A stretch of DNA of 60,487 nt from positions 1 through 60,487 of the forward strand of contig CAMZLQ010000038.1 in assembly GCA_947311585.1 (NCBI GenBank), written 5' to 3'. The notes below the pieces were generated by a model. That model had not been told where the DNA came from, made no database searches, and was given only the letters and a program-made list of their open reading frames with translations. The position numbers were made by a program, and so were the translations under genes. Shown here piece by piece: positions 3,818-57,546 of this stretch; the first letter of the stretch is position 1, and the number at the start of each line of letters is the position of its first letter. The DNA is from an uncultured Alcanivoracaceae bacterium (GTDB lineage: Bacteria > Pseudomonadota > Gammaproteobacteria > Xanthomonadales > Marinicellaceae).

Positions 3818-3892
3818 GATGAGTTTTTTTACTTAGTTTTTATCTATTCTATCTATCTGACAGGTAATTTTGTGTTAAATTGCAAAATTATT

Positions 3893-4216
3893 ATGAAATA
3901 TTCAATTTTTATTAACCCCAAAAGTCAAAACTCTTCTGCCATTATACAAGCGTATGAGTTTGTACAAGCCATCAGAGAGGATAAATTTGAACACATCAGC
4001 GTTTTCTTTTACGGTTATGCGGTCAAATGTGCCTTTTACAATGGCTGCCAGTGGAAAATGGTCAACAATTCTAGCATATCGCTATATGCTTGTTCGACAA
4101 TCGCACAAGAGTTTTTAACCAAGAATCAAAAAGTTCATGAAAATTTTACCATTGCAGGACTTGGGCAATGGTTAGATTCCACCCTTAAAGCTGATAAAAA
4201 CATTGAATTCATATGA
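3893..4216 (+). CDS. tusD: sulfurtransferase complex subunit TusD (DsrE family)
   Basis: ATG 3893 (MKYSIFINP) preferred over GTG 3872. Family motifs VFFYGYAV, conserved Cys in LYACSTIA, GLGQWLDS...IEF C-terminus. Confidence 0.75.
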   Translation: MKYSIFINPKSQNSSAIIQAYEFVQAIREDKFEHISVFFYGYAVKCAFYNGCQWKMVNNSSISLYACSTIAQEFLTKNQKVHENFTIAGLGQWLDSTLKADKNIEFI

Positions 4217-4503: not shown

Positions 4504-4763
4504 CTATCCAAACCCTACACCTATGCAACCTAGATGAGGTTGCTAATTTAGAGCCTTATTGGTTGATGGTTTGTCCGCATGATCAAATTATATTCTACGC
4601 TCACTCAATTAATAAAGAACAATACAAAACACTTGATAAACATCTGCCTTTAACAAAGAAGCACTACCAGAGCAAGCTAGAAAATAAGGCAATTAGCAAT
4701 ATTACGATGGAAAAATGGCTGCAACTGGTTAACACCTCAAACAAAGTAATAACATGGAAATAG
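4500..4763 (+). CDS. tusB: sulfurtransferase complex subunit TusB (DsrH family)
   Basis: 87 aa. ATGA overlap with tusC. Third gene of the tusDCB-type triplet. Confidence 0.55.
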   Translation: MTIQTLHLCNLDEVANLEPYWLMVCPHDQIIFYAHSINKEQYKTLDKHLPLTKKHYQSKLENKAISNITMEKWLQLVNTSNKVITWK

Positions 4764-5074
4764 ATAAAATTAAATTAGATAATAATGGGCATTTTCAGGA
4801 TTACCGTTTATGGAATAAAATTTTGGGAGAACAACTGGCTCAACGCGATGGCATGGCTTTAACTGATGAACACTGGCAAATCATTAAATTAGTGAGAAAG
4901 ATTTATCTTGAAACAGAAACCACTCCGCCCATGCGTCTATTAGTAAAAGCCATTAAAATCAATATCAATGAAGAATCAGCTAATTCTCGGCATTTATATC
5001 GGTTATTTCCTGATGGCCCTGTTCGCTTAGCAAGCAAGTATGCAGGCCTACCAAAACCTAAGCATTGCATGTGA
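4754..5074 (+). CDS. tusE: TusE/DsrC family sulfur relay protein
   Basis: 106 aa. C-terminus YAGLPKPKHCM has the conserved penultimate-region Cys of TusE/DsrC and lacks the second upstream Cys of true DsrC. Overlaps tusB by 10 nt. Confidence 0.75.
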   Translation: MEIDKIKLDNNGHFQDYRLWNKILGEQLAQRDGMALTDEHWQIIKLVRKIYLETETTPPMRLLVKAIKININEESANSRHLYRLFPDGPVRLASKYAGLPKPKHCM

Positions 5075-5076
5075 AA

Positions 5077-7917
5077 TTAAACTAATTTTTTTATTTCTGC
5101 ATAAGGAAGGGCTTTACTTACCAAAAAACCTTGAAAATATTCGCATCCAATTGATTTTAATAATTCGAACTGTTCATCCGTCTCTACTCCTTCTGCAACT
5201 ACAACCAAATTGAGCTTATGAGCCATGGATACAATTGTCTCAATAAGAACTTCCGATGAATTTTCTTTTTTAAGACTTTGTATGAATGATTTATCAATTT
5301 TTAACATATCAATCGGCATTTTTGTTAAGTACTTAAGTGATGAATATCCTGAACCAAAGTCATCAATGGCCAAATTGATGCCTAATTTCTTTAATTTATA
5401 TAATTTATCTAGAGCATCATCAAAATCTTCTATAGCTATTGATTCGGTTAATTCTAAAGTAATTAAACTGGTGTCAATTGCATGTTTGTCTGAATATTTC
5501 TCAATAACTTCGACTATTTTAGTGTGGCGAAATTGAAATAAACTAACATTAATTGAGATAGGTAAGATAAACTCATTTTCTTTTAACCGATTACTAATGC
5601 AACTAAATACACAGTCAAAAATCCATTCATTTAGTTCAATAATTATCCCTGAGTCTTCGGCAATACCTATAAAAGAATCAGGCAATACTAATCCATCTTC
5701 AGGGTGTTCCCAACGGATAAGGGCTTCTAATCGGCACACCTCCTTATTTTGGTTAAAGATGGGTTGGTAATACATCTTAAATTCATTTTTTATAAAGGCT
5801 TGCTTTAATAACTCTTCGGTCCGCAATAATAAGTTTGCCTGCTCTTGCATAGGTTCTTCAAAGAAACTGAGCTCCCCTGCTCCTCTTGATTTTGAAGCAT
5901 ACATGGAAATATCAGCTTGTTGAATTATCTCATCAGGGTCACTCGCACCCGTTGGAAACAAACTGATGCCAATACTAAATGAAGTATGAAAACTATATCC
6001 ATCTATAATAAAAGCCTCCTTCATTCCTTTTATGATTTTATTGGCGACACTTTTAGCATTGAGCTTAAACTTTGGTAAGTCAACAGCTTTATTTTGCAAT
6101 AAAATAACAAATTCATCTCCGCCAAAACGAGAACAAACATCCCCTTTCCTTATAATTTTAGTCAACCTCACGGAAATTTTCTTTAATAATTCATCGCCAA
6201 AATGATGACCCATTGAATCATTCAGCACTTTAAATCTATCTAAATCCAAATACAATACCGCGCCATATAGAGTCTTTTTTTGTGCCTCCTGTATTGCTTC
6301 TTTTAAAGAGAGCATAAAACTTTGACGATTGGGCAAGTTTGTCATGCTATCAAAATAGGCTAATTGCTTTATCTTTTGTTCATTTTCTTCATCTTTAGTA
6401 ACATCAATTTTAATTCCTAAGAGCTCTATCGAGTCTTCTTTCTTATTGTAATGAGGCGTGACAAAATCCTTCAACCAAACAAGATCACCATTTTTACGTT
6501 GGGCTCGGTATTTAAGCTCAAATTTCTGTAAAGAACGAGCACCATTAAAATAAATTGTATCAACGGATTCCACATCTCTTGAGTCAACTATTTTAGTTCT
6601 AACGGTATTCAAATCCATTAACTCTTCTAGTTTAAAACCCATGATTTTTTCAGCTTCCTCGCTTATAAAATCGAGCTTAGAATTACCCAGTGTGTGTTTC
6701 CAAAATATTACGGGTAAAACTTCTACCATTTGTTTGTATTTTTCTTCACTTGCCTTTAGATTTTTATTGAGTGATTCAATTTTTTTAGTTCGTTGTTCAA
6801 CCCGTTTATTTATAAGAATGGAGTTACCTGTGATAACCAACAAGCCTGACTCAAGAAAAGAGATGAATAAAAATCCAATAGATAATAACCACCAAATCAA
6901 CCACGAAGAATATTTCAAGTAAAAACTCGACTTTGCTGTAACTTCAAAAACCCATTTGTGATTAAAAAATGAAAAAGCGGTCTTTACTTTTGAAAAGTGA
7001 TTTGTTTTGGCTGATTTTGGGGTTTCAAATACGGATTTATTCTCATTTTCATAATGTGATAATATCTTTATATTTATATCTTCCAATTCAAGTTGTTTTA
7101 TAACGCTTGGAGAATGCTCTGTTAAAAAGTCATCTAATAAATTGATGGCTTCTTCATTAGCCAGTTTGTGTAAGTTTTTTGTCTTTTGAGAATACTCAAA
7201 TAAGATATTATTTGAAAAGTATTCTGCTTGAGTTTCAAGCTTATCATGAATGCGTTGTGCTTCAACTTTTTTTATGTTTAATGCTACAACAATCAATAAC
7301 ACAAATGAAATAATAACAGGAATAAAAGTCAAGTAAAACCTATTCCACCAAAGTGTCCGAGGCTTTTTAAAAAGCACAAACATAAGTGGTAAAACAATAT
7401 AAATACCAACATTATCGCCAAACCACCACGCACTGTAATTTATTAAGAACAAATCGGAGTTAAGTAAACCACTTTGTGTCAATACACAAGTTGACAGAAA
7501 CGCAGTGAGTGTAACAGGAATAATGGCTGAAAATAAACACAAACGAATGATTGACTTTAAAGTAAGTAATGTATTGCCTCTACCAACATATTTATTAACC
7601 AAATATGCACCTAACACACTGCGAATAACTGCTGAAAGGAGCAAAGCAATATAGGAAAATAAAAGCGAATTTTCACTGGATAGAGTATCCAATTCGTAAA
7701 ATTGGAAATTTATCAAGAACTCCCCAATAACAATAGCAGGAATGTAACGATAACCGAATAATAAAATTACACCGACCCCCACTCCAGCAGCTGGCCAAAC
7801 TGGTGCAGCATAAGTAGGAGGAAGAAGCAGGGGTTGAACCAACAAACCAAAACCATAATAAACCAGTGCAATTATCGCACTTGTGATTATAAACTTGGTT
7901 GTTGAATTAATTGTCAA
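5077..7917 (-). CDS. MASE1-PAS-GGDEF-EAL membrane protein (putative bifunctional diguanylate cyclase/phosphodiesterase)
   Basis: 946 aa. About 8 N-terminal TM helices (MASE1-like) and a PAS region. Intact RFGGDEFVILL. EAL domain with EALIRW, DDFGSGYSSL, KIDKSF, EGVET. Its start overlaps the upstream gene's stop by 11 nt. Confidence 0.9.
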   Translation of the reverse strand: MTINSTTKFIITSAIIALVYYGFGLLVQPLLLPPTYAAPVWPAAGVGVGVILLFGYRYIPAIVIGEFLINFQFYELDTLSSENSLLFSYIALLLSAVIRSVLGAYLVNKYVGRGNTLLTLKSIIRLCLFSAIIPVTLTAFLSTCVLTQSGLLNSDLFLINYSAWWFGDNVGIYIVLPLMFVLFKKPRTLWWNRFYLTFIPVIISFVLLIVVALNIKKVEAQRIHDKLETQAEYFSNNILFEYSQKTKNLHKLANEEAINLLDDFLTEHSPSVIKQLELEDINIKILSHYENENKSVFETPKSAKTNHFSKVKTAFSFFNHKWVFEVTAKSSFYLKYSSWLIWWLLSIGFLFISFLESGLLVITGNSILINKRVEQRTKKIESLNKNLKASEEKYKQMVEVLPVIFWKHTLGNSKLDFISEEAEKIMGFKLEELMDLNTVRTKIVDSRDVESVDTIYFNGARSLQKFELKYRAQRKNGDLVWLKDFVTPHYNKKEDSIELLGIKIDVTKDEENEQKIKQLAYFDSMTNLPNRQSFMLSLKEAIQEAQKKTLYGAVLYLDLDRFKVLNDSMGHHFGDELLKKISVRLTKIIRKGDVCSRFGGDEFVILLQNKAVDLPKFKLNAKSVANKIIKGMKEAFIIDGYSFHTSFSIGISLFPTGASDPDEIIQQADISMYASKSRGAGELSFFEEPMQEQANLLLRTEELLKQAFIKNEFKMYYQPIFNQNKEVCRLEALIRWEHPEDGLVLPDSFIGIAEDSGIIIELNEWIFDCVFSCISNRLKENEFILPISINVSLFQFRHTKIVEVIEKYSDKHAIDTSLITLELTESIAIEDFDDALDKLYKLKKLGINLAIDDFGSGYSSLKYLTKMPIDMLKIDKSFIQSLKKENSSEVLIETIVSMAHKLNLVVVAEGVETDEQFELLKSIGCEYFQGFLVSKALPYAEIKKLV

Positions 7918-9709
7918 GATCTACTGTGTTCCATTTATTGATTTTAGGAATAATTTCTTTTTCTTTATTTTGAGTCTTGATGATTATTGAGTCAATACTT
8001 TTATCACCCACACCTATAATTAGGTCTTTAGAAACCTGAGATAGATAACTTTTTGTTGTAGAGTTGATGTATTTTCTTTCTCCATCCTTGAAAATCAATT
8101 GAACCTCAATGCCAACTACGGATTGATGAGCATGAAACTTTAGACCCACCCAATTTCCATGTTCAGACTCATTGATAAACAACTTAGGTGAACGAGCCAC
8201 TTGAGTAACAACAATATCTAAATCGCCATCGTTATCCACATCAGCATAGCTGGCGGCACGCCCAACTAAATCCAGTTGAGTTAAATCTCCAGCCTCCTCT
8301 ATAGGAACATAAGTCCGCTCACAATCCTCACCGCAATTCCAAAATAATTGACTTTTTTGAGCGTAATGTTGTGCCGCTTGCACTTTGTTTATATCATTTT
8401 CAACGTGTCCGTTAGTTTGAAAAAAGTCCAATCGTCCATCTAAATCATAATCAAAAAAGAACAAACCAAAACTGAGTGCTTGACGGGATTTTGGTCCAAC
8501 ACCTGTGATAACAGATTCATCAGTAAAAAAACCTAAATTTGAACGATTGACGTAAAAAGAAGTCATTTCATTTGCAAAATTACCTATTGTCACAGCCACA
8601 TCTTTATTGTTCTTATAATAAGCCGCGTCCAATCCCATTGCACCTGTTGACTTGCCACTGGCATTGTAGGCCAGCCCTATTTGAGCTCCTTGCTCTTTAA
8701 ATGTTTTGTCTTTTTGATTAATGAAAACAAAATTCTTAGTGGTGTCATTGGCAACAATGACATCTTCAAAACCGTCTTTATTAATATCCAAAAAGGTCAG
8801 TGCTAATGATTTTCCTTCAAACTCTCCGGTTGCAGGATTTTTAACCACTATTCCAGCTGTTTTGGTGACATCCAGAAACTTTCCACCACCTTGATTTTCA
8901 AATAAACAATTGTGTGTTCCAGGAAAATTACTTGGTGGGCCATAAGCGCGTCCTATTCCATCAATTTTATAATCCGCTGCCAAATCCAACTCTCTTGACC
9001 ATTGGACATAGTTAAGAACCATTAAATCTAAATCTCCATCATTGTCGTAATCAAAAAAACCACTGGAAGTACTCCACCCCTCTTGTGTGCAATCCAAAAC
9101 GGCTTGACTTTCAACAAATTGCTGACCCTTTTGGTTGATGTACAAATGATTCTGACCAACCGCAGCAATAAAAATATCGTCGTATCCATCATTATTGACA
9201 TCACCAATAGCAATCCCTGTTCCAAAAAAAGTTTTATTCAAACCCATTTTTTGACTCACATCAGTAAAATAGCCTTTGCCATCATTTTCATAGATATGTT
9301 GCGTTGGTGCCGGTGTTATGGTGTGGTTCCATTGCCAGTTGGTACCATTGGTAAAGACAATATCTTGATCACCATCGTTATCAAAATCGATAAAAGCAAC
9401 CCCTTGCCCCATGGTTTCGGGCAGCATTCGCTCTCCTGTTGCTCCATTTTCTGGAACAAACCCAATGCCACGTTGTTTGGCTTGTTCGACAAAAAGAGTT
9501 TTGGGTGGGTTGATGCGATGAATTAATTGTTCAGGAGCTTGATAAGCTTCTTCTACAATGCCTTGTTGTTTCTTTTCCCTAGTAAAATAATATACCAACC
9601 CGACAGTTATGAGTATCATGGCTGCAATTATTATCAATGAGCGCTTAAAAAAATCTGCAATCACAGCATCATTGGCTATCGGATGCTTTTGTGAATTTTT
9701 ATTCGTCAT
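7907..9709 (-). CDS. CRTAC1-family protein (FG-GAP/VCBS beta-propeller with UnbV/ASPIC C-terminal domain), N-terminally membrane anchored
   Basis: 600 aa with one N-terminal TM (LIIIAAMILITVGLVYYF). Six DxDxDG-type Ca-loop repeats: FDNDGDQD, VNNDGYDD, YDNDGDLD, INKDGFED, YDLDGRLD, VDNDGDLD. C-terminus NWVGLKF...VGIEVQLIFKDG...SYLSQ...IIGVGD matches the UnbV/ASPIC pattern. Confidence 0.8.
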   Translation of the reverse strand: MTNKNSQKHPIANDAVIADFFKRSLIIIAAMILITVGLVYYFTREKKQQGIVEEAYQAPEQLIHRINPPKTLFVEQAKQRGIGFVPENGATGERMLPETMGQGVAFIDFDNDGDQDIVFTNGTNWQWNHTITPAPTQHIYENDGKGYFTDVSQKMGLNKTFFGTGIAIGDVNNDGYDDIFIAAVGQNHLYINQKGQQFVESQAVLDCTQEGWSTSSGFFDYDNDGDLDLMVLNYVQWSRELDLAADYKIDGIGRAYGPPSNFPGTHNCLFENQGGGKFLDVTKTAGIVVKNPATGEFEGKSLALTFLDINKDGFEDVIVANDTTKNFVFINQKDKTFKEQGAQIGLAYNASGKSTGAMGLDAAYYKNNKDVAVTIGNFANEMTSFYVNRSNLGFFTDESVITGVGPKSRQALSFGLFFFDYDLDGRLDFFQTNGHVENDINKVQAAQHYAQKSQLFWNCGEDCERTYVPIEEAGDLTQLDLVGRAASYADVDNDGDLDIVVTQVARSPKLFINESEHGNWVGLKFHAHQSVVGIEVQLIFKDGERKYINSTTKSYLSQVSKDLIIGVGDKSIDSIIIKTQNKEKEIIPKINKWNTVDLDN

Positions 9710-9711
9710 GT

Positions 9712-12462
9712 TTATTCTTCTCTGATATTATTTTCTTTTATAAAGTTGTTTACTGAAATGGTATTCTCCAACCTATCCAATTCATAAATGGCAATCATTT
9801 CTGCTGCATGGTCTGCTGCTTTATTTTTTGCTCTGGCTTTAGCAATAACCGTATCGTGTGCATTATCATCCACTTTATGTTTGTCGTGTAAAGCTTTATG
9901 CTTTTGTGCTTCTTGCACTTCACCTAAAGCAGCATAAAGCTGGAACAAACCAAAATGGGCATCTGCCCACTCTGGATTCATTTCTAGCACTTCATTAAAT
10001 TTATCAATGGATTTTTGATATATAGTTTTTTGCTCTTGCCCTGAAAGCATTTTTGCTCTTTGAAATAAAGTTTGTGCATAGAGGGTGACAAATTTATAAT
10101 CTTTAGAAAAATCAAAATTGGCATCTTTTGCATTTTGAAACTCGGTTTTATAGACTCGCTCAAAACTATCTAAAGCTTTTTGTATAAAACCATTTTGCAA
10201 ATCTATAATCCCCGCAAAATAAGACAATTGCCAAGTATACCTAAAGTCTTGGACTTTGGCTGCTTGATTTAACGACTCTTGTGCTTCATCTAAGCGACCT
10301 TGTTGAAGATAGGTGCGAGTTAAATTTATCCACCCCTCTGCTCGTCCTAGCATCGCCACTTGCTTAAATGCTTTTTCCGCTTGTTTGTAAGCTTTTTGAC
10401 GTAATAAACCAATACCATAATCATTCCAACGTTTCCAATCACTCACAACTGGGATACTTGTACTAGCATCTGATTTTATAGATATATTTTGTACATCTCT
10501 GGCTAAAGTCAATATAGGCAAATCATTAAACTTAGTCTCATCTTCAGTAAAGAAACGGTAGTAAGTGGTATCAAACTTCCGATAAAGAACTTGCGTTTCT
10601 AGAGTGATTTCACCAGTTAATTCAGCTGGGATTTCTAAAGAGTAATGAACGACAGTTGCTGCACCTGGTGGAATTCCATGGTTGTATAATGCGGTAAAAA
10701 TGTCTTCACCATTACGTTTATCAATCCGATTTCCATTTTTATCCAAAACCCATGTGTTGATGAAATAAGACCAATCATCGACTTGACCTTCGGAATTTAT
10801 ACCGCCATTTGCCGCTATTCTTTTACCGTTATGATAGACGTTAAACTCAACCCAGACTTGATTTGAATCAGCCGTGCCTTGAGTAAAAGCATGACCCAGT
10901 TTGACTGTTTTGATGACCGATTCAATCAAATACCGTTTACCAGGTTGCAATTCAACTTTGTCATTTAATGGAGCAATAAGCTCTCCTGTTAGTTCTCCTT
11001 GCTGTTTTATTCCAAATATATCCACTGACAATGAGCCTGGCAACAAGGCATTAACAGGGTCTGGTTTTAACTTGTTCAAGTAACGTATGCCAGAATTAGC
11101 CGCTTCAAAATAATGGCTATGAACCTGACCATTTCCACTAAATGATTCGGTAATTGCACCAAAATCATCAGAATCTTGTAGCGGCATGTGGCAATCAGCA
11201 CATTTTTCCTTGGCTTTGGGAGGGTAATAAAAGCTGGCGACAGCATGCCCTGATACCCCTGATAAAAAGAATGAGTCATAGTGATTTTGACCCCTAAGCC
11301 ATTTATAATGGTTCAATGCTTTTGGCAAGGCCACTTTATGGCAAACACTGCAAAACTCAGCCTTTTTATGCAGTGGTTTTAAATAAGATTTTTTATGAAA
11401 ATCAGGTTTTGCCTTAACCAATGTCTGATTAACCCATTGTAAAAAAGGCAACTCTGAATAAGTAAATGGGTATTGCTCTGGAATTGTTAAGGTATAAGAG
11501 CCATTACCCTTTATTGAGTTTATATCGGAAATAGCATGACAGGCTGTGCAGGTAATGCCCGCTTCTCCAATTTTGGTTCCAGAAAAGTCCTTATCCTTAT
11601 CGAATTCACCGCTAAACATGATAACAGGGTCATGACAAACCGCACAAAGCTTTGCTGCATCATGATTGCCATCGCGCTTCTGTAAAAACTTACGCGTGTT
11701 ATTTATCGCAAAAGAATAGGATTGGTTGTTAAAACTTGAAACTTTATGTACCGAATTCATCCACCCTTCATGCACATCAGCATGGCAATTTTTGCAGTAT
11801 TGGTTGTTATCTAAATCTTTTGGCTTAATGTGTTTATTAGTGCTGGTTTGGGCAAATGATGGGGCAAATAACGGATTCATCTCATCGTGTTTAATTTCCT
11901 TTGGCATCAATGTTTCTCTTTGCAAATACCCCAATCCAGCCAGTGTCACCACAGTCAATAATAGCGTTATTTTACTTGGTAACCACGACAGTTTTGGCCC
12001 TGCTAAACGGTGCATTACAAATAACCAAATAGCAACAAAAGGCAAGACAACATGCAACCAATAGGTTATTTGCCTGAGTTGAATATTTTTGATTTCAAAG
12101 AACGGAATTTCTCGTGTCAGCAACAGTCCAGAGAGCAACAACAATAAAGAAAAGACAAACAAGGCATAACCTGCCTTTATGGCTCTTTTATTCCTTCTGT
12201 TTTTGGTATTACCAATATGAATCCAACCATAAACAATCACTGGAACAATTAACAATAAACCAAGGACTAAGTGACTCAAAAACATATACAAATAGGTTTG
12301 ATCTTGCAAACTTGTATTAGTTATCCACTCGGCAAATGTTATCGTTGATAAATAAATAGAATTAATAACCAGTAGTGAAAATAAGATAAAAACAATTCTC
12401 AAGACTTGTTTTAACTTTGGACCCACTGCTTTTTTAGGTCTCTGTTTAATAATATGACTCAT
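9712..12462 (-). CDS. membrane-anchored pentahaem c-type cytochrome with C-terminal TPR repeats
   Basis: 916 aa. Five N-terminal TM helices (aa ~20-180). Five CXXCH motifs (CKNCH, CAVCH, CTACH, CSVCH, CADCH; DNA ~11188-11796). TPR-like helical repeats in aa ~655-860. Confidence 0.8.
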   Translation of the reverse strand: MSHIIKQRPKKAVGPKLKQVLRIVFILFSLLVINSIYLSTITFAEWITNTSLQDQTYLYMFLSHLVLGLLLIVPVIVYGWIHIGNTKNRRNKRAIKAGYALFVFSLLLLLSGLLLTREIPFFEIKNIQLRQITYWLHVVLPFVAIWLFVMHRLAGPKLSWLPSKITLLLTVVTLAGLGYLQRETLMPKEIKHDEMNPLFAPSFAQTSTNKHIKPKDLDNNQYCKNCHADVHEGWMNSVHKVSSFNNQSYSFAINNTRKFLQKRDGNHDAAKLCAVCHDPVIMFSGEFDKDKDFSGTKIGEAGITCTACHAISDINSIKGNGSYTLTIPEQYPFTYSELPFLQWVNQTLVKAKPDFHKKSYLKPLHKKAEFCSVCHKVALPKALNHYKWLRGQNHYDSFFLSGVSGHAVASFYYPPKAKEKCADCHMPLQDSDDFGAITESFSGNGQVHSHYFEAANSGIRYLNKLKPDPVNALLPGSLSVDIFGIKQQGELTGELIAPLNDKVELQPGKRYLIESVIKTVKLGHAFTQGTADSNQVWVEFNVYHNGKRIAANGGINSEGQVDDWSYFINTWVLDKNGNRIDKRNGEDIFTALYNHGIPPGAATVVHYSLEIPAELTGEITLETQVLYRKFDTTYYRFFTEDETKFNDLPILTLARDVQNISIKSDASTSIPVVSDWKRWNDYGIGLLRQKAYKQAEKAFKQVAMLGRAEGWINLTRTYLQQGRLDEAQESLNQAAKVQDFRYTWQLSYFAGIIDLQNGFIQKALDSFERVYKTEFQNAKDANFDFSKDYKFVTLYAQTLFQRAKMLSGQEQKTIYQKSIDKFNEVLEMNPEWADAHFGLFQLYAALGEVQEAQKHKALHDKHKVDDNAHDTVIAKARAKNKAADHAAEMIAIYELDRLENTISVNNFIKENNIREE

Positions 12463-12464
12463 AA

Positions 12465-15400
12465 TTACTTCCCAGCCTTAAATCTGCTGTTAAATTTACG
12501 GTTTAAGAACTGTGCTTGCTTTGAAATTTTTCCATTTTTAGGAATAGGAGTTAAAGTCTCCCCATTAAGGGTCAATATATCCATATCCTTTGCCCAGCCG
12601 ACAAATTTTAGCAGGTAAAAACGTGAAAAACCATTTTTTAACGCAGGTAAGTCATCAATAAAGGTAAATTTAATTGACTCACCAGCAGCTATTATTGCTA
12701 ACGCATTATCAGCTTGAGTAAGCAAAGGTTTTATCTCTCCCAATTGCGTATAACTCCCTTCCATATAACGCGTATCCCAAAACGGTTTAATACGGTTCAC
12801 GTTGTAGCTTGGAACTCTTTGTGCATTGTTTGTCCTTTGTGGGAAACCGTATACTTTAAGGGTTGCACTTTGCAGAGTTAGTTGGTGTTTTATTACAGAG
12901 TCAACCGCATGAGGAATAACTAAAGATAACTCATCAAAATAAACTTCCATATTGGTTCTTATGCGCAGTTTTCTGGTGTTTTTTGGAATATTGATGGCAA
13001 CTGAAGCAGCCCGAGGCATACCTGCAGGATAACCAAATTCTTTTAACAAAACAGTCCATTGACCATTGGCATAATATTCCAACGTTGGTGCTTGGGCAAT
13101 TTTTCCTGCTTGCCAGGCAGCAAACATAGTTTGAGAGTAGCCATATTCTACCCAACCATTCATTATAAACTGGTATTGACCAAACAAGTCTTGATTAAAT
13201 TCCATTGTAATAATTTGTTCGTCCACTAAACCTAAAAATCGTGAGTCCTTGTTTTCAATTTCAATTGCCCTTTTATCCGTAGTTGTTGCGGCATCCGTGA
13301 CATCAGTGCCACTCCGGTTTGTTACACGAAATGGCTTAATTTTGTTTTGGTATAAAATCAAATCACCTGTCACCTTTGGCAATGAAATTCCCATGCGTTC
13401 ATCAAGTAACACATGATAAGCATCGGGAACATCAACAACCTCTATTTGAAATTCATCTAAATACGCCGATTCTTCCATTGGCTCAGTAAATTGCAAGTTA
13501 AAGACACCATCTTTTGAGGACAGTTGTTCATTCGTTAGCAAATAATTTTCCCACGGTCTTGGGGTTCCATACTCATGTCTTCCAAGAGCAAAGCCGATAC
13601 CTCCAACACCCAAAACATCACTAATAAATTCATATTTGCCATTGTTCCATGCAAAGATTACTGGGCAACTTGACAATTGTCTTTGAGTTTCTGTAATTTT
13701 ATAGTATTTTGAAGTTTCTAAGCCTAATTCCGTTTGATAAACACCATCCGACCACTCCAAATCAATATAATCAATTGTTTTATCAATACCAGCAGCGAGA
13801 TTTATGGCTTGATAATCTTGGTCAACGCCCGTTAAATTGTGATAACTATTGCCAATGGCATAAAAACTTTGGTTTCGTAACGTTACTTGTGTTCCAATTC
13901 CTGAATAATTCGAGCGCACAGAATTGGCATCATCCTCCTTTCCTGATAAGTTTACTAATAAATAAGGCAACCTATTTTTACTGGCAGGAACATGAACCAG
14001 CTTTTTGTTTTGCAAAACTAACAACTCAGGTCCATGCACCGTATTCAACACTTTAATACCAGCAACTCCATTGAGCATAATTTGTTCCTGAACTTTACCC
14101 TCTGCATCAACAATTTTAATGCCTTGGTTACTGCTTAATAAATATTCTTTTTTACCACTGCCATTCACATCAACTTGTAAGAACTTGTTTGATTTCATAT
14201 TATTCAGGCTCTTTAATTTAGAATAATCCTTAATTTGTGAATCGAACTCTAATTGTGTTAAATTGCCATTCTTCGCTAATATGCTGATTTCAGGCACTCC
14301 ATTAGTGTTATTGTCGGCAAAAGTAATCGATTCTATTTGTGGTGTTATTTTTGAACTATAAATGACTTCATAATCCCACATGCGATTATTGAGTAAAGTC
14401 ACAAGCTTATCATCGCTTTGTAAAATAATATCGGCATCTCTATCGCTGTCTATATCTTGCACGAATATCCTTTTGTATCCCGCTTCAGGAGCAAGAAGGG
14501 TCTTTTTTGACAAAGCAGAAAAGCTGTCATTAAGGTTATTATTCCATAATTCAAACTTTCCTTGTTGTGATAACAGCAAAACATCCAAATCTCCGTCATG
14601 GTCTGCATCAGTTAACCGTATGGCTTTTGAACTCAACCCTCCTAAACCAAACGATTTCATATCAACCGGCTTAAATTTTCCCTCTTGTTGCAGGTACAAT
14701 TGATCCGATTCACCGGTAATATAAACATCTATTATATTATCGTTGTTGATATCACCCCAAGCAATCTGATGGATGCCATCCGTAAGTTCAATGCTTAATG
14801 CCTCTCGTTCAACCGCTTTACTCAAAAAGTTATCATACAAATGCAATGTATTGCCAGAAACCGTATAGAGTTGTGGCTTTTGTGTCTGCGACAAACTAAC
14901 CAATCCAAAGGCATCAATGTTTTGAAAAGCAAGAAATCGAGGCACCGCAAAATAGGGAGCAGCAACGTGCATCGAATATTTCTTTTCTTCGGTTTCATTC
15001 GAAAAAGCCATCGCCCTTGCCTTTGGACCCATGCGCGTGTATTTAATTTCGGCTAAACGCGCTTTTGGGTTACTTGCTAATTTTTGATAAGCTGCTAACA
15101 TTTCTTTAGCAATCATTGGCTTCTCAAGCCGTTGAGCTGCCATAAAAGCACCGTAATAAGCACTGCGCAAATAATTATCGGCTTTAATTGCTTGTTGATA
15201 TAAATCCAATGCAGCTTTGACTTTGCCATTTTGTATATTGCATTGCCCTGCAAAATACAGAGCGTAGGCATCTTTAGCATCATGTGCTATGACTTTTTCA
15301 AAACGAGGTAAGGCTTCATCACACAAACCTTGATTGAATTTTAAAATACCAACAATGTAATCAGCCACAAGATTTGATTGGTCAAGTGCGGATAAGTTAA

Positions 15401-15701
15401 TTGCTAACTGCAAAGCTTTGTCTTCATCACCTGGTTTTTGACGATTTAACAAGGCGATGGATAAATTTTGTTTGGCTAAATCCCAATCCTTAGCTCTTTG
15501 CACAAGTTCTTCAAAAGTAGTGGTGGCTTTAGCGTAGTCAAATGAACCCATTTCTCCCACACCTTGGTTGTTTAAGCTAATCAATTCTGAATCAATTTTA
15601 CTTTTAACCTCAAGATTGTTGTGGCTATTGTCTTGTTCAGTGCAGGCTGTTATTGCTAGGATTAATAGCAAAACAAATACATTCTTTTCACTTTTTTGCA
15701 T
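12465..15701 (-). CDS. large lipoprotein: TPR repeats + FG-GAP/VCBS repeats + UnbV/ASPIC-like segment + unassigned ~400-aa C-terminal region
   Basis: 1078 aa. Lipobox LAITAC (Cys20). TPR region aa ~40-215. FG-GAP-type loops DINNDNIID, DADHDGDLD, DIDSDRDAD, DVNGSGKKE. UnbV-like GIGTQVTL...IDYIDLEWSDG (aa ~600-652). Confidence 0.75.
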   Translation of the reverse strand: MQKSEKNVFVLLLILAITACTEQDNSHNNLEVKSKIDSELISLNNQGVGEMGSFDYAKATTTFEELVQRAKDWDLAKQNLSIALLNRQKPGDEDKALQLAINLSALDQSNLVADYIVGILKFNQGLCDEALPRFEKVIAHDAKDAYALYFAGQCNIQNGKVKAALDLYQQAIKADNYLRSAYYGAFMAAQRLEKPMIAKEMLAAYQKLASNPKARLAEIKYTRMGPKARAMAFSNETEEKKYSMHVAAPYFAVPRFLAFQNIDAFGLVSLSQTQKPQLYTVSGNTLHLYDNFLSKAVEREALSIELTDGIHQIAWGDINNDNIIDVYITGESDQLYLQQEGKFKPVDMKSFGLGGLSSKAIRLTDADHDGDLDVLLLSQQGKFELWNNNLNDSFSALSKKTLLAPEAGYKRIFVQDIDSDRDADIILQSDDKLVTLLNNRMWDYEVIYSSKITPQIESITFADNNTNGVPEISILAKNGNLTQLEFDSQIKDYSKLKSLNNMKSNKFLQVDVNGSGKKEYLLSSNQGIKIVDAEGKVQEQIMLNGVAGIKVLNTVHGPELLVLQNKKLVHVPASKNRLPYLLVNLSGKEDDANSVRSNYSGIGTQVTLRNQSFYAIGNSYHNLTGVDQDYQAINLAAGIDKTIDYIDLEWSDGVYQTELGLETSKYYKITETQRQLSSCPVIFAWNNGKYEFISDVLGVGGIGFALGRHEYGTPRPWENYLLTNEQLSSKDGVFNLQFTEPMEESAYLDEFQIEVVDVPDAYHVLLDERMGISLPKVTGDLILYQNKIKPFRVTNRSGTDVTDAATTTDKRAIEIENKDSRFLGLVDEQIITMEFNQDLFGQYQFIMNGWVEYGYSQTMFAAWQAGKIAQAPTLEYYANGQWTVLLKEFGYPAGMPRAASVAINIPKNTRKLRIRTNMEVYFDELSLVIPHAVDSVIKHQLTLQSATLKVYGFPQRTNNAQRVPSYNVNRIKPFWDTRYMEGSYTQLGEIKPLLTQADNALAIIAAGESIKFTFIDDLPALKNGFSRFYLLKFVGWAKDMDILTLNGETLTPIPKNGKISKQAQFLNRKFNSRFKAGK

Positions 15702-16665
15702 GTTTTATTCTTTCGTTTAAGGTTTCGATTGTTGGTATTGTAGATTCACTATCTAATTTGATGTTGCGTTGATAACCGTAAGCTTGTTGTCGGTAGTGAG
15801 CAATAGTATCATGACCTTGTCGGCGTTTTTTTTCTAATCTAATTGCTGCAATATCAATCGGAGCAACAACCACTTTCTCCCCTGAACTCTCACCTGCACT
15901 TGCCAAAATCCTCCCATCAAAATCAACAATCATAGAACCTCCTGGCCATGAAAAAGGGGGATAGTGTTGCATACTTGCTCCTTGATTTGCTGCCACAACA
16001 TAAACTGTGTTTTCTAATGCTCGTGTGCGATTGACTAATGACCACCATTCCATCGGGGCAGTGTTTCCCCATGGATCCATATAAGCAGAAACACGGTTAA
16101 TAACCTCAGCTCCTGCAAAAGCAATTTCACGTATGCACTCAGGAAATAGCCAGTCATAACAGATAGCCACACCTAGCTTTCCAATTTCAGTATCTGTAAC
16201 TGGAAACAAGGGCTCATGGTAATTGGACAAATCAGCAGGAGAAGTGTGAACTTCCCAAGGAATCCACGTATTTACTTTACGGTATTTTGACAATATCCCG
16301 CTAGGACCAATAAGCATTGTCGTATTAAATACATGCCCAGGGTATTGCTTATCCTTTTCTAAAAAACTGGCTGTCTGAATATAAATACCGTATTTTTGGC
16401 ATAATTCATGGTATTTGTCTGTGTAATTATTAGGTAATTCTACTGCCAATTTATCGTGAAGCTCTTTGGCTGTCCGATAGATAGGAACCTGATGCCCAAA
16501 TTCTGGCAACACAAAAAGCCTGACGTCAAAAAACGGCTCATACCCTAAAACGGTTTGTTCAATTATTGTGCACATCGCCTCACAACGATTTGCTATTTCG
16601 CTTCGAGATTGAGGTGCGGGAAAATCGGTTTGAATTGTGGCAGCGTAATATCTCATTTTATACAA
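15688..16665 (-). CDS. carbon-nitrogen hydrolase family protein (nitrilase/amidase superfamily)
   Basis: 325 aa with no signal peptide. Catalytic triad contexts VLPEFG (Glu), YRKVN (Lys), VAICYDWLFPE (Cys). Its 3' end overlaps the next gene's start by 14 nt. Confidence 0.85.
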   Translation of the reverse strand: MYKMRYYAATIQTDFPAPQSRSEIANRCEAMCTIIEQTVLGYEPFFDVRLFVLPEFGHQVPIYRTAKELHDKLAVELPNNYTDKYHELCQKYGIYIQTASFLEKDKQYPGHVFNTTMLIGPSGILSKYRKVNTWIPWEVHTSPADLSNYHEPLFPVTDTEIGKLGVAICYDWLFPECIREIAFAGAEVINRVSAYMDPWGNTAPMEWWSLVNRTRALENTVYVVAANQGASMQHYPPFSWPGGSMIVDFDGRILASAGESSGEKVVVAPIDIAAIRLEKKRRQGHDTIAHYRQQAYGYQRNIKLDSESTIPTIETLNERIKHAKK

Positions 16666-16796: not shown

Positions 16797-17648
16797 TTAG
16801 AGCTGGTATACTAAACGAACTGTTTTTCTTAATTCTGTTTTTATTCCTGAATCCAACGGTGGTTTATAGCTCCACTGCCTCACTGCTTTTAATGCACTGT
16901 TATCAAAAATATGAGAGTTCTTTTTTGTCCTTAGCACCTTTGCACCAGTGACATTACCCATTGAGTTAATGGTAATTTCGACATCAACCCAACCCTCTAC
17001 CTTTTTGCGTGCTGCTCTTGAAGGGTAAACTGGTGCCACATTTTTTATTTTTTTCCATTTATAGGGTGCTGTAGAGACTTGCTTTTTTTGTGGTTCTTGT
17101 TTGGCAATTGTAATTGTGGTTGCTGCTTCGTTTCCTAGATTATTTTGTTCTACACGTTTTTGCTCTGCAATCTGCTCTTGAAGTTGTTTTTGTTGTTGAG
17201 CAGCAATTCGTTCTTGCTCTTCTTGCTGTATTCGAGCCAACCTTTGTGCTTCTCGTTCCTTTACGGCTAACTTTTCTGCTGCTAACCGTTCGGCTTCTCG
17301 TTTTTCAGATGCTAACCGCTCGACTTCTAATTTTTTAAGTTTTGCCAGTTGAGCTGCTTTCTTATTACGCTCATTATCTAACTTTTTTTGAATTTCAATC
17401 TTATTGGTTATTTGCTGACTTGTGGGTTTTTGAATGGTATTTTGAGTAGTAAATGACTCATCTCGATCAAAATCAAGTGAACGTCTATCCAACCCAAAGT
17501 CATCCTCTTTTTCAATTTGAACTTTTAACCTTGGATTGTCTTTGCGTTCAGGCAATGCGTCAGTCCATGAGGGCTTTTTCTTTGATTCTTGTGCATGCGT
17601 AGCAAATTGGAATACTAACAATGCACCTATTATTGTTTTATTTTTCAT
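16797..17648 (-). CDS. TonB C-terminal domain protein with cleavable signal peptide and long E/R/Q/A-rich coiled-coil
   Basis: 283 aa. N-terminus MKNKTIIGALLVFQFATHAQE looks like a signal peptide rather than a TonB anchor. Coiled-coil LEVERLASEKREAERLAAEKLAVKEREAQRLARIQQEEQ. TonB_C motif PVYPSRAARKKVEGWVDVEITINSMGNV...FDNSALKAVRQWSYKP. Confidence 0.7.
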   Translation of the reverse strand: MKNKTIIGALLVFQFATHAQESKKKPSWTDALPERKDNPRLKVQIEKEDDFGLDRRSLDFDRDESFTTQNTIQKPTSQQITNKIEIQKKLDNERNKKAAQLAKLKKLEVERLASEKREAERLAAEKLAVKEREAQRLARIQQEEQERIAAQQQKQLQEQIAEQKRVEQNNLGNEAATTITIAKQEPQKKQVSTAPYKWKKIKNVAPVYPSRAARKKVEGWVDVEITINSMGNVTGAKVLRTKKNSHIFDNSALKAVRQWSYKPPLDSGIKTELRKTVRLVYQL

Positions 17649-17828: not shown

Positions 17829-20084
17829 CTAATGGGTTAATTGCATAAACACCTTGGGCAGTTGTTCTGGTAATTTGTCAACATGATCAATAATGGTATA
17901 ATTGTTATTAAATATATCACTCACATAATTATCTGCATTCTTATCAAGCGTGATGCAATAACTAAATATGCCTTGAGACTTGAGCTCTTCCACACATTTT
18001 TTTGTGTCTTTAATAAGTGTTTGCGAGTCTTTTGCATCAATATCCGCAGGTTCACCATCGGTTAACACCAATAGCAACTTCTTTTCTGCTTGTTGTGCAC
18101 TCAGATAATGAGCAGCATGTCGCATAGCTGATCCCATGCGCGTGGAATAAGACGCTTGCATTTGGGCAATACGCGCTTTAACCGTTTCTCCGTATTGTTC
18201 ACTGAATCCCTTAATGTGCTGATAACGCACTTCACTTCGGGTATTTGAGTTAAATCCCGCAATAGCAAATTTATCTCCCAATTTATCTATTGTCCATGCC
18301 GTTATTGCCAAAGCTTCTTGTGACAGTTCCAATAGTGATTGGCCCGTTTCAACATTTATTTGATTTAATGACTCAGATGAATCAACCAACAACATCACCG
18401 CAATGTTACGAGAATCAGTAGTATTGCTGTAATTAATTCGCAAATCGGGCACTTGCCCATTTTTTAAGTCAATTAAGGAACGCAAGGCAATATCCATATC
18501 CAGTTCACTGCCCTCTTCTTGAAAGCGAATGCGCTTTTTGTTCTGGGGTTTTAGCATTTCTATTATGCGCTTTAATTTTTTTGCCAATTCATCGTGTTTT
18601 TGCATAAGTTGGTCAATCCTATGGGCATCACCTGATGGGTGCAATCTTTCATACACCGTTGTCCAATCCGGGCGATAGCTTTGGGAAATATAATCCCATT
18701 CATCATAAAAACGCGGTGGTAAACTGTCGGCTGTATCGATTATTCGTTCTTCATTTTGGTATTCATTGGGCACAATTTCATCGGCTTCATCGTATTCTTC
18801 GTAATGAAACCAAAAACACCGATTATCATCTCGGTAAGATACTTCGGTATTGTCAAAATAAATTTCAGGTAAACTATCGCTATCAAGGCGTGATTGGATG
18901 AAATATTGAGTACCCAGCTTTGCCATTTCTTGCGTCGATGAGGGTTTGTTATTAATGAGTTGGTTGAATTTTTTTCTAAATTGCTCGATTAGTTCGTCTT
19001 CGGGATTGAAATTTTTATCAATTAAAGCCCGTGATAAGCGTGTTGCTCGGTAGCGAATTGTTGAAACTTTCATGGCATCACATGCACCTTTTTCGGGATA
19101 GGTATGTAAGGCGAAAAAATATTTGGTTAAACCTGGATACTGACGCATAGCAAGCCGATCAACGCGCGCGTCTTCAAAGGCGGAAATTATTAATTGCATT
19201 TGCGGTGCGTAGTTATCTGCCATAAGTTTGCTTGACCATTTTCGATGCGCCATCAAATGTGCTAGCATAGTGCGGTAGCGATTGATGCCGCTGATGCCAT
19301 TTAACTCTTCATAGACATCTGGCACGGCTATCAAATCTTCTTCCAAATACGGCAAAGGCACCCGTATTTGGTCGAAACTGGTGGAAAATGCTGTCATCGG
19401 ATAATCACAATCCCACAGGCACTCTTTTGCCATTTTAAGTTTGTGTTCACTGTTTTTAAAACTGGTGCCTTGTCTTTCGCGATTTATAATGCTTTTGGCA
19501 TCGTGTGATTTCAGACTGAAATAGTCGATTTGTTGATCAGGTACATCGACATAATTGCGGGCACCGTAGTCAATAAAACTTCTCAAGCCTTTGATGCTTA
19601 GTTTGGAGATGAGTTGTGGCATGGCTTGTAATAATGGCACCATGCCTGAGGATTCATACAGTGAGTTATGCCCATGAATGACGGTTTGAGTTTTTTCGAC
19701 AAACTCATCCAATGCAATTAAATAGTGCTGTAAATCATCTTTGTTTTTTACGCGGCGGCACACTGTTTTTAAGGATTGTAAAAAAGGGATTAAGGCTTTT
19801 TTATTCGGGCTTCTTGCCAACCTGTAACTATAGTCGGTAATGATTTTGATTGAATCGGTACCCAATTGTTGGGCGACTTCTGGAATAATTTTCAGGTAAA
19901 CCAAAACAGGGTGTACACCTTGACCTATGGAACATAAAAAATTGGCACCATCCAAATAAGCAAATATGGCAATATCATTGAGGCATTTTTTTGCGTTTTT
20001 TAAACACGGTTCAAAGGCTTCAAGTGCATCAGGAAATTTACATTTAAAGCGTTGTTGGTATTTGTTTAATGACTCAGTTTCCAT
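17829..20084 (-). CDS. cbbO: RuBisCO activation protein CbbO (von Willebrand factor A domain)
   Basis: 751 aa. C-terminal VWA with MIDAS LLVDSSES. Start abuts the cbbQ stop (20084). Position in cbbM-cbbQ-cbbO. Confidence 0.85.
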   Translation of the reverse strand: METESLNKYQQRFKCKFPDALEAFEPCLKNAKKCLNDIAIFAYLDGANFLCSIGQGVHPVLVYLKIIPEVAQQLGTDSIKIITDYSYRLARSPNKKALIPFLQSLKTVCRRVKNKDDLQHYLIALDEFVEKTQTVIHGHNSLYESSGMVPLLQAMPQLISKLSIKGLRSFIDYGARNYVDVPDQQIDYFSLKSHDAKSIINRERQGTSFKNSEHKLKMAKECLWDCDYPMTAFSTSFDQIRVPLPYLEEDLIAVPDVYEELNGISGINRYRTMLAHLMAHRKWSSKLMADNYAPQMQLIISAFEDARVDRLAMRQYPGLTKYFFALHTYPEKGACDAMKVSTIRYRATRLSRALIDKNFNPEDELIEQFRKKFNQLINNKPSSTQEMAKLGTQYFIQSRLDSDSLPEIYFDNTEVSYRDDNRCFWFHYEEYDEADEIVPNEYQNEERIIDTADSLPPRFYDEWDYISQSYRPDWTTVYERLHPSGDAHRIDQLMQKHDELAKKLKRIIEMLKPQNKKRIRFQEEGSELDMDIALRSLIDLKNGQVPDLRINYSNTTDSRNIAVMLLVDSSESLNQINVETGQSLLELSQEALAITAWTIDKLGDKFAIAGFNSNTRSEVRYQHIKGFSEQYGETVKARIAQMQASYSTRMGSAMRHAAHYLSAQQAEKKLLLVLTDGEPADIDAKDSQTLIKDTKKCVEELKSQGIFSYCITLDKNADNYVSDIFNNNYTIIDHVDKLPEQLPKVFMQLTH

Positions 20085-37266: not shown

Positions 37267-37347
37267 TGATGGTATGTTAATTAAAAATACAGGATTATAA
37301 ATTAAAAAATGGTAAAATTTGCCATTAGTTTTAATAATTAACAATTC

Positions 37348-53061: not shown

Positions 53062-55227
<2,166 letters not shown>

Positions 55228-57508: not shown

Positions 57509-57546
57509 GGTAAAAACCCACATTAATTAATATGCGAGCAGTTTAG

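Follow-up and report, generated by a model that had tools for sequence, protein, structure and literature searches.

The window analyzed here comprises 60,487 nt, positions 1 to 60,487 of contig CAMZLQ010000038.1 (assembly GCA_947311585.1), from an uncultured bacterium labeled Alcanivoracaceae in GenBank and placed in the Marinicellaceae by GTDB. Between positions 16665 and 5077, its minus strand carries five open reading frames (ORFs) encoding a CN-hydrolase, a lipoprotein, a membrane-bound multiheme cytochrome, a β-propeller protein of the CRTAC1 type, and a GGDEF-EAL protein. An initial annotation had read these five genes as a single unit, a candidate redox-signaling system of the envelope. 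Its coordinates were reproduced exactly by the ORF listing, the junctions it gave (in the direction of transcription, a 14-nt overlap, two 2-nt gaps, and an 11-nt overlap) follow from those coordinates, and the genes are co-directional and tightly packed. The domain content it assigned to all five products was borne out by Pfam and NCBIfam, and the topology of the products across the envelope is as it predicted. The five-gene unit itself stood only in part. Four of the gene types do recur together in other genomes, but the conserved core is a two-gene pair, the cytochrome and the propeller; the CN-hydrolase and lipoprotein genes are optional, and the GGDEF-EAL gene is local.

Gene neighborhoods were compared in 17 genome loci, 80 metagenome loci, and 13 loci obtained by exact protein look-up (numbered with the prefix L), with all counts restricted to loci having sufficient flanking DNA. 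In 57 of 64 loci, the gene directly downstream of the cytochrome gene, in the same orientation, is of the CRTAC1 type. Independent gene calls place the two genes in a 4-nt overlap (L018, L019, L021, L109, and L110), and 4-nt overlaps between the CN-hydrolase and lipoprotein genes are also present in such calls (the loci named for both overlaps are L018, L019, L021, and L110). The pair is retained in loci where the cytochrome has only 34–40% identity to that of the window (L012, L104, L106, and L107). L106 (40%) carries all four genes, L107 (37%) and L104 (35%) carry the pair, and L012, a Terriglobia metagenome-assembled genome (MAG) at 34%, carries the pair with a lipoprotein-like gene after it rather than before it. 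At 26–29% identity (L013 and L014) the association is lost, in proteins whose N-terminal domain is shorter as well. Two cultured bacteria carry the four-gene module: Wenzhouxiangella marina (complete genome CP012154.1, at about 3.119-3.128 Mb) and Pseudomarimonas salicorniae. Two further distant representatives (P0174 and P0193) lie on short, uninformative contigs. Dozens of unrelated contigs show the same gene order, and chance adjacency was rejected on these conservation statistics. The co-occurrence of the cytochrome, CRTAC1, TPR/FG-GAP lipoprotein, and CN-hydrolase genes in unrelated genomes, which the initial annotation had left to a neighborhood search, was thus confirmed by that search.

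The lipoprotein gene lies directly upstream of the cytochrome gene in 17 of 48 loci, and the CN-hydrolase gene is found upstream in 17 of 43. Both are present in 15 loci, neither in 24, and one only in 4. The two therefore form an optional, mutually linked pair, present in about 40% of loci. Among 751 neighboring ORFs clustered from about 90 loci, only tetratricopeptide repeat (TPR) proteins and two-component genes recur; one cluster of secreted TPR proteins (c4) stands beside the module in 9 loci and is not universal, and the same is true of DUF4826 and the two-component systems. No recurring cluster of further c-type cytochromes or of MtrAB/MtoAB-type porin-cytochromes was found among these ORFs.

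Some individual neighborhoods are richer. In L012 (2142-17531) the module is preceded by a CarboxypepD_reg/OMP_b-brl_4 outer-membrane protein of the TonB-dependent type, a second CRTAC1 gene, and a TPR protein with a peptidyl-prolyl isomerase domain. Two unrelated lineages, L019 (17159-22784) and L106 (1-3574), have TPR-sulfotransferase genes together with an extra CRTAC1 paralogue bearing a signal peptide and a TPR protein. In the case of L104 (1-18733), a TPR-cytochrome-CRTAC1 trio lies within a locus of the exopolysaccharide/O-antigen type, which encodes sugar nucleotide enzymes, methyltransferases, an acyltransferase, and GNVR and AAA_31 genes of the chain-length/tyrosine-kinase type.

The AlphaFold2 (AF2) model of the cytochrome has a predicted local distance difference test score (pLDDT) of 79.6 and resolves the layout of transmembrane (TM), heme, β-sandwich, and TPR domains (Table 1). 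The TM helices of the model span residues 15-48, 55-86, 92-115, 127-153, and 161-180, and both the N-terminus and the 84-96 loop are strongly basic. Attachment of c-type heme needs a periplasmic location. The N-terminus is accordingly placed in the cytoplasm, because the c-heme domains must be periplasmic, the number of TM helices is odd, and the cytoplasmic loops are positively charged. With this topology, TM2 and TM4 each carry one histidine at the periplasmic end (H64 and H137, respectively) and another at the cytoplasmic end (H82 and H151, respectively). An alignment of 33 divergent members, which share 18–47% identity in the TM region, has H64 and H137 in every sequence and H82 and H151 in at least 90% of them. 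The four histidines are probably the ligands of two b hemes stacked across the membrane. The protein had been described as pentaheme; five CXXCH motifs are indeed present, but it is probably not only pentaheme, since the TM histidines indicate two b hemes in addition. With these two extra hemes, the cytochrome would be a transmembrane electron wire.

Matches of the TM domain to known families are weak. Ni_hydr_CYTB was matched by 9 of the 33 divergent members at E≤1 (best E 0.0016, below cut-off), with scores of 16.7–18.7 bits against a cut-off of 30.1, a sub-threshold likeness to the TM domain of HydC/FdnI. Weak matches were also obtained to DUF4405 and PepSY_TM, which we take to belong to the same two-heme clan as Ni_hydr_CYTB. 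Some members of the family have independently received the Joint Genome Institute (JGI) name 'cytochrome b subunit of formate dehydrogenase'.

The periplasmic part begins with five CXXCH motifs at residues 223-425, all invariant in 46 homologues. Histidines 239, 356, 365, 406, 448, and 450 are also invariant in these homologues and are sufficient for bis-His ligation. Cytochrome_C554 (PF13435) was matched at 29.0 bits against a gathering score of 20.8, and in 10 of 10 members tested. For the heme domain, a profile search of the PDB returned the pentaheme cytochrome c552 of Thermochromatium tepidum (5ZE8, E=1.6e-8), and the match to Mtrc-MtrF_II-IV_dom was sub-threshold (20.2 bits vs 30). The β-sandwich that follows belongs to no known family, as judged by Pfam searches with the heme and β-sandwich region of 10 members and by a sequence profile search of the PDB. 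Its only low-confidence loop in the AF2 model, residues 525-531, falls in the invariant GH524xFTxGTxDSN motif. After the TPRs, the protein ends in a conserved tail, DDNA...AADHAA...IY.

The distribution of the cytochrome was assessed with an exhaustive HMMER search using residues 1-680, from which the TPRs had been removed, against 1.84 billion representatives. The search gave 2,476 clusters (50% identity) at E≤1e-3, of which 478 reached E≤1e-30; a word-indexed search gave 6,461 relatives. Lengths are mostly about 850-1,050 amino acids (aa) among the best 150 of the 2,476 clusters. Five CXXCH motifs are present in 61, and four in 15, of the 76 among these 150 that passed a filter for length and first motif. 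The family is found in Gammaproteobacteria, Acidobacteriota, and others. The window's closest relatives are MAGs of hydrothermal-vent and marine origin, assigned to Marinicellaceae, 'Lysobacterales', or 'Alcanivoracaceae' on binning. All source names of family members are generic ('multiheme c-type cytochrome', 'tetratricopeptide repeat protein', 'hypothetical'), and no named or characterized member was found among them.

The product of the second core gene matches FG-GAP_3 (9.7e-34). UnbV_ASPIC is sub-threshold in the window's protein (19.2 bits vs 23.4) and clear in orthologues (in L012, for instance, 2.8e-21 and 5.6e-19). Its best match among PDB sequences is human CRTAC1 (9ETN, 4.5e-7). 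The propellers encoded next to the cytochrome have no cleavable signal peptide; instead, a cytoplasmic N-terminal tail with the motif D..I...[FLM]..S leads at once into a TM anchor, an example of the juxtamembrane motif being DDAVIGRAFRWS (loci L001-L102). Under a strict criterion, motif and anchor are present in at least 51 of 59 cytochrome-adjacent propellers, and inspection by eye adds several more. A signal peptide or lipobox is found in 12 of the 16 other CRTAC1-size paralogues in the same loci, and the remaining 4, which have the motif, all adjoin a cytochrome gene or lie within about 1 kb of one. The motif and anchor suggest that the propeller may associate specifically with the TM domain of the cytochrome at the level of the membrane. 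Aspartates of the Ca-binding DxDxDG type and glycines make up most of the propeller's conserved residues, among which there is no Cys/His cluster and no redox-cofactor signature; this suggests a non-redox, Ca2+-binding protein of the ligand-binding type.

Table 1. Genes of the module, domains of the membrane cytochrome, and flanking genes in the window.
Feature	Positions	Strand	Details
Membrane cytochrome ORF (core gene 1)	9712-12462	minus	916 aa
Five TM helices, putative diheme-b module	11908-12462	minus	residues 1-185; H64, H82, H137, H151
Pentaheme c domain, c552/c554 type, mostly helical	11053-11850	minus	residues 205-470; Pfam Cytochrome_C554
β-Sandwich domain	10477-11031	minus	residues 478-662; AF2 strands; loop GH524xFTxGTxDSNxxW and H606
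TPR superhelix	9802-10437	minus	residues 676-887; Pfam TPR_19 4.4e-11
CRTAC1-type FG-GAP propeller ORF (core gene 2)	7907-9709	minus	600 aa
TPR/FG-GAP/UnbV-like lipoprotein ORF (accessory gene)	12465-15701	minus	1078 aa
CN-hydrolase ORF (accessory gene, cytoplasmic nitrilase-superfamily amidase)	15688-16665	minus	325 aa, TTG start
MASE1-PAS-GGDEF-EAL ORF (lineage-specific addition)	5077-7917	minus	946 aa, TTG start
TonB-family gene, 131 nt upstream of the CN-hydrolase ORF	16797-17648	minus	TonB_C 7.3e-18

The lipoprotein of the accessory pair combines Pfam TPR and FG-GAP_3 matches with a UnbV-like β-sandwich and an all-β C-terminal region, and it is without CXXCH. Its N-terminus, MQKSEKNVFVLLLILAITA-C20, contains the lipobox LAITAC, and at least 90% of 41 orthologues keep Cys20; the Thr at position +2 is consistent with sorting to the outer membrane. 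The C-terminal region, of about 450-500 aa, is highly conserved. An AF2 model of residues 570-1078 (pLDDT 78.6) consists of all-β sandwiches, and Foldseek gave only weak matches of the jelly-roll, carbohydrate-binding module (CBM), discoidin, APC10, and capsid type (query TM-scores ≤0.2). Since these are weak sandwich matches and no enzyme is among them, the idea of a recognizable C-terminal enzyme was dropped.

The second accessory protein has a CN_hydrolase domain (PF00795; 1.4e-36, 126.6 bits) and no signal peptide. The segments of its Glu-Lys-Cys triad, PEF, YRKV, and AICYD, align with those of the AmiF formamidases 5G3O and 2DYU. Its scores fall below the cut-off of every NCBIfam equivalog, those for formamidase and aliphatic amidase included (114.6 vs 406 bits for NF009803 and 92.2 vs 427 bits for NF009802). 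It is by far the best conserved component of the module, at about 65% identity where the cytochrome is at about 48%, the propeller at about 45%, and the lipoprotein at about 37%. The 131-nt gap to the next upstream ORF, reported in the initial annotation, is correct for the TTG start. An in-frame ATG at 16656, nine bases 3' of the TTG, is more probably the true start, and the gap measured from it is 140 nt. The leader contains no riboswitch, because an Rfam scan of the whole window returned zero family matches.

The GGDEF-EAL protein, a putative cyclic di-GMP (c-di-GMP) enzyme, has the architecture MASE1-PAS-GGDEF-EAL (Pfam GGDEF 4e-41, EAL 6.5e-68), and its catalytic motifs are intact in translation (GGDEF, RxxD, EALIRW, DDFGSGYSS, and EGVE). 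Its gene had been counted as part of the unit. It follows the propeller gene only in the closest, Marinicellaceae-like clade, in 8 loci; within that clade L007 and L011 lack it, as does every more distant locus, including those of Wenzhouxiangella and Pseudomarimonas, and a place in the conserved unit can no longer be maintained for it. The TTG start of the window's gene overlaps the stop of the propeller gene. In relatives at 43–47% identity, its counterparts align from residue 5-9 and begin about 20 nt past the upstream stop, so the 11-nt overlap is not a conserved feature. The TonB-like gene at the other end is retained upstream in L001-L011 and L021 only, and may be co-transcribed with the module in the window's clade. 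The reported lack of an internal terminator-like hairpin agrees with a scan that counted 10 sites, against 9.5 ± 2.8 in shuffled sequence; all minus-strand sites lie within ORFs. A weak 7-bp hairpin with a T-run is located at 7881-7865 on the minus strand, 26 nt past the propeller stop and just inside the start of the GGDEF-EAL ORF. It is the only hairpin near a junction and matches the consensus weakly, and it might attenuate read-through into this lineage-specific gene.

Directly upstream of the module and the TonB-like gene, on the same strand, lie genes for CbbO/VWA (17829-20084), CbbQ (20084-20884), and form II RuBisCO (cbbM, 20976-22355), with a LysR regulator (22457-23356) divergent from them. 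The linkage of RuBisCO to the TonB gene and module is retained in L001 and L004 and is shortened in L008, where RuBisCO comes directly before the TonB gene. On the other side, a DsrE-like ORF (3872-4216, plus strand) and a DsrC/TusE-like ORF (4754-5074, plus strand) converge on the GGDEF-EAL gene; the stop codons of the latter two genes are 2 nt apart (5074/5077), leaving no space for a terminator. Further away, the minus strand encodes a cd1 nitrite reductase, NirS, of 705 aa with two additional N-terminal cytochrome c domains (53062-55179), adjoined by a TonB-dependent receptor gene (55331-57523). It also encodes a WD40 propeller protein of 705 aa (35269-37386) and a Sortilin/BNR propeller protein of 789 aa (24056-26425). 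A second GGDEF-EAL protein is encoded at 38355-40412 on the plus strand. Because the window holds cbbM-cbbQ-cbbO, DsrC/DsrE-like genes, and NirS, the host is probably an autotrophic, denitrifying vent gammaproteobacterium. The function of the module is not tied to this lifestyle, since the module is distributed more widely.

Several described cytochromes resemble that of the window in part. CbcL of Geobacter joins a diheme-b TM domain to nine periplasmic c hemes (PMC9129911), and its family has N-terminal c hemes, about six C-terminal TM helices, and three conserved histidines (PMC6295460). As in CbcL, MtrH, and MtoC, a TM domain with histidines for two b hemes and a periplasmic multiheme c domain are found in one polypeptide; the c hemes are probably all bis-His ligated, and electron exchange between the quinone pool and the periplasm is presumed. 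In contrast to CbcL, the order is reversed, with five TM helices (residues 15-180) preceding the CXXCH motifs; there are five c hemes rather than nine, and the window's protein also possesses a β-sandwich and a TPR arm. It has four conserved TM histidines, on two helices, against the three reported for the CbcL family, and the partner is a heme-free propeller rather than c-type cytochromes or porins. Membership of the CbcL family was rejected on domain order. MtrC and OmcA are lipoproteins in which two pentaheme domains (II/IV) alternate with β-barrel domains (I/III), whereas the window's cytochrome has one pentaheme domain, a TM anchor, and no lipobox. An Mtr-type conduit was likewise rejected, there being no recurrent porin or outer-membrane cytochrome among the neighboring ORFs. 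The first three heme motifs align with those of T. tepidum c552 over only about 100 residues, and c552 is a soluble protein of 435 aa that has no TM domain, β-sandwich, or TPR.

The partners can be compared in the same way. Like other CRTAC1/ASPIC-UnbV proteins, the propeller has FG-GAP Ca-binding repeats followed by a UnbV_ASPIC β-sandwich. It differs from them in that it is anchored in the inner membrane, has a conserved cytoplasmic motif and no EGF domain, and is genetically locked to a cytochrome. NHL propellers in extracellular electron transfer (EET) clusters (UetH/UetI of 'Ca. Tenderia', Gmet_0556, and D. ferrophilus) have been proposed to stabilize cytochrome complexes or mediate adhesion (bioRxiv 10.1101/2022.05.06.490989). 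There, too, a heme-free β-propeller is encoded beside a multiheme cytochrome, but those clusters have porins and several cytochromes, whereas the module has an FG-GAP/UnbV propeller and a single cytochrome. In some bacteria, hydrazine-synthase-like genes flank a CRTAC1-family gene (PMC12758564), a setting unlike the present one. The CN-hydrolase shares its fold and the Glu-Lys-Cys(-Glu) residues with AmiF and AmiE (5G3O, 2DYU, and 2UXY) over about 250 residues; in contrast to these equivalogs, it forms a separate, well-conserved subfamily whose genes come before the lipoprotein gene. Literature searches on CRTAC1, UnbV, FG-GAP, and TPR proteins with multiheme cytochromes, and on Wenzhouxiangella cytochromes, found no description of the module. 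The earlier statement that no described pathway combines these proteins is in line with this result, as the searches returned no characterized pathway or paper. We regard the module as a probable bc-type membrane cytochrome with an unprecedented set of conserved partners, one that falls outside the described families without demonstrably being a new category of system.

Our preferred interpretation, to which we assign a probability of roughly 0.45, is that a quinone-pool-linked transmembrane electron-transfer protein is complexed with non-redox ligand-binding propeller and jelly-roll proteins and serves a periplasmic or envelope substrate. The core would be a two-protein inner-membrane complex of the fused b/c-type cytochrome and the CRTAC1-like propeller. 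Two b hemes, one held by His64 and His137 on the periplasmic side and one by His82 and His151 on the cytoplasmic side of TM helices 2 and 4, would connect the quinone pool or the cytoplasmic face to the five periplasmic c hemes, beyond which the β-sandwich and TPR arm follow. The Ca2+-binding FG-GAP/UnbV propeller would be tethered beside the cytochrome through its own N-terminal TM anchor and juxtamembrane motif. It is taken as a substrate-/ligand-binding or scaffolding subunit, because it has no redox-cofactor signature, and would present a periplasmic or envelope substrate to the heme chain. The lipoprotein is of similar construction, with TPR, propeller, UnbV, and jelly-roll/CBM-like domains, and would probably extend the complex toward the outer membrane. 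The presence of a dedicated cytoplasmic amidase suggests cytoplasmic handling of a small amide product or precursor. In the window's clade, the MASE1-PAS-GGDEF-EAL gene downstream and the TonB-like gene upstream are local additions. What is observed comprises the gene order and its conservation, the domain content, the conserved residues, the logic of the topology, and the lack of named relatives; b-heme binding and formation of a physical complex are inferred, as are which way electrons flow and what kind of substrate is served.

Several points weigh against this interpretation. The case for b hemes in the TM domain rests on a histidine pattern together with a sub-threshold Pfam match, and the arrangement of two plus two histidines on two helices is presumably unlike that of FdnI and CybB. 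A search of PDB sequences with a profile of the TM domain gave no meaningful match, and Foldseek of the whole cytochrome model against the PDB returned TPR proteins only (such as MamA and CTPR), TPR matches having filled the list. The adjacent propeller is missing from 7 of the 64 loci, and the loci sampled are biased toward relatives of at least 44% identity. A cofactor-free propeller makes an odd partner for a seven-heme protein; it could just as well be purely a scaffold, or the gene for the true redox partner could lie elsewhere. This interpretation also leaves the amidase without an explanation.

An alternative that we consider unlikely, yet deserving of weight, is that the complex is a catalytic oxidoreductase. 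The His/Asp loop of the β-sandwich or the propeller would be the active site and would carry out oxidation, reduction, or oxidative cleavage of a polymer, nitrogen-containing or glycan, belonging to the envelope or the surroundings, with electrons exchanged with the quinone pool; a small amide released in the process would be imported and hydrolyzed by the CN-hydrolase, which would account for the presence of that enzyme. The GHxFTxGTxDSN motif and H606 are invariant in a domain without a family, and it is in that loop only that AF2 is unsure, a behavior common at cofactor sites. The amidase shows tight linkage and the strongest conservation of all components, its active site is like that of formamidases, and the lipoprotein bears CBM/discoidin-like domains. 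The TPR-sulfotransferases of L019 and L106 and the polysaccharide locus of L104 would fit as recurrent neighbors, but these associations are anecdotal, being seen in 2–3 loci. No similarity to any enzyme was detected by Foldseek of the lipoprotein C-terminus or by profile and Pfam searches, and the β-sandwich has only two invariant histidines. Furthermore, the amidase and lipoprotein are missing from about 60% of loci and so cannot be essential to the core chemistry. It is a long shot that the cytochrome-propeller pair represents a new class of quinone-linked periplasmic redox enzyme, in which the propeller or the orphan His/Asp β-sandwich binds and transforms an envelope or extracellular polymer and the amidase mops up the amide.

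A conduit for EET appears quite improbable. Here the cytochrome would oxidize quinol or reduce quinone in the manner of CbcL, MtoC, or ImcH, and the propeller and lipoprotein would help to pass electrons to or from minerals, humics, or reduced sulfur or iron compounds. The bc-type inner-membrane architecture fits such a role, as do the NHL proteins and other β-propellers that accompany multiheme cytochromes in described clusters (bioRxiv 10.1101/2022.05.06.490989). The position of the window's genes behind cbbM-cbbQ-cbbO, in what is probably a chemolithoautotroph, also fits, and one family member comes from 'bacterium MnTg04'. However, the RuBisCO linkage is found in only three close relatives, no conserved porin, outer-membrane cytochrome, or periplasmic cytochrome is nearby among the neighboring ORFs clustered above, and the lipoprotein lacks heme motifs. 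The module also occurs in soil Acidobacteriota and in bacteria of the Wenzhouxiangella/Marinicella group, described as universally aerobic (PMC7691419). The link to reduced sulfur or iron substrates drawn in the initial annotation finds no support in this occurrence in aerobic heterotrophs and soil Acidobacteriota, with no outer-membrane cytochrome or porin alongside, and a module for sulfur or iron lithotrophy was rejected because of the aerobic heterotrophs.

The original model, in which the redox state of the cytochrome and propeller is read out as c-di-GMP by the MASE1-PAS-GGDEF-EAL protein, is now hard to uphold. The GGDEF-EAL gene does abut the propeller gene, and its position has been kept in 8 close relatives at only 43–47% identity, which argues for selection on that position. 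The intact catalytic motifs and the MASE1 membrane and PAS sensor domains would suit a readout of this kind. Against it stand the loss of the gene from L007, L011, and every locus outside the clade, the weak hairpin and T-run at the junction, and the fact that GGDEF-EAL genes are numerous and mobile, as the second one in the window illustrates. Because the gene is clade-restricted, a 'redox-signaling system' or 'c-di-GMP output' is at most a lineage-specific add-on. Least probable of all is a structural or envelope-assembly unit, in which TPR arms and propellers form a trans-envelope scaffold (for matrix or exopolymer anchoring, or protein maturation) and the cytochrome is only a redox-dependent anchor or sensor: TPR modules on two partners, further secreted TPR proteins (cluster c4, L104, and L106), the TonB-like gene upstream in some clades, the outer-membrane protein upstream in L012, and the extracellular-matrix location of eukaryotic CRTAC1 speak for it, but seven strictly conserved heme sites would be costly for a mere anchor, and no similarity to known assembly factors was seen beyond generic TPR.

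We return to the preferred interpretation, a quinone-linked cytochrome with a ligand-binding propeller. Bacterial CRTAC1/ASPIC-UnbV and FG-GAP/VCBS proteins are very numerous and, to our knowledge, have no assigned function. Their near-obligate partnership with a dedicated seven-heme membrane cytochrome is the first firm contextual clue for CRTAC1/UnbV proteins and opens the question to testing. Should the pair prove to be a new class of enzyme, the very large bacterial CRTAC1/UnbV family would gain its first biochemical function, and there would be a lead for the UnbV proteins of enediyne clusters and for animal CRTAC1. The cytochrome belongs to an undescribed, widespread family of fused b/c membrane proteins (about 2,500 clusters at 50% identity). 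It occurs in aerobic heterotrophs, in RuBisCO-carrying, probably autotrophic vent bacteria, and in soil Acidobacteriota, and because it is spread over such different lifestyles it may be an overlooked branch point of respiratory chains. Since the four-gene version exists in cultured strains, both genetics and biochemistry on the module are feasible.

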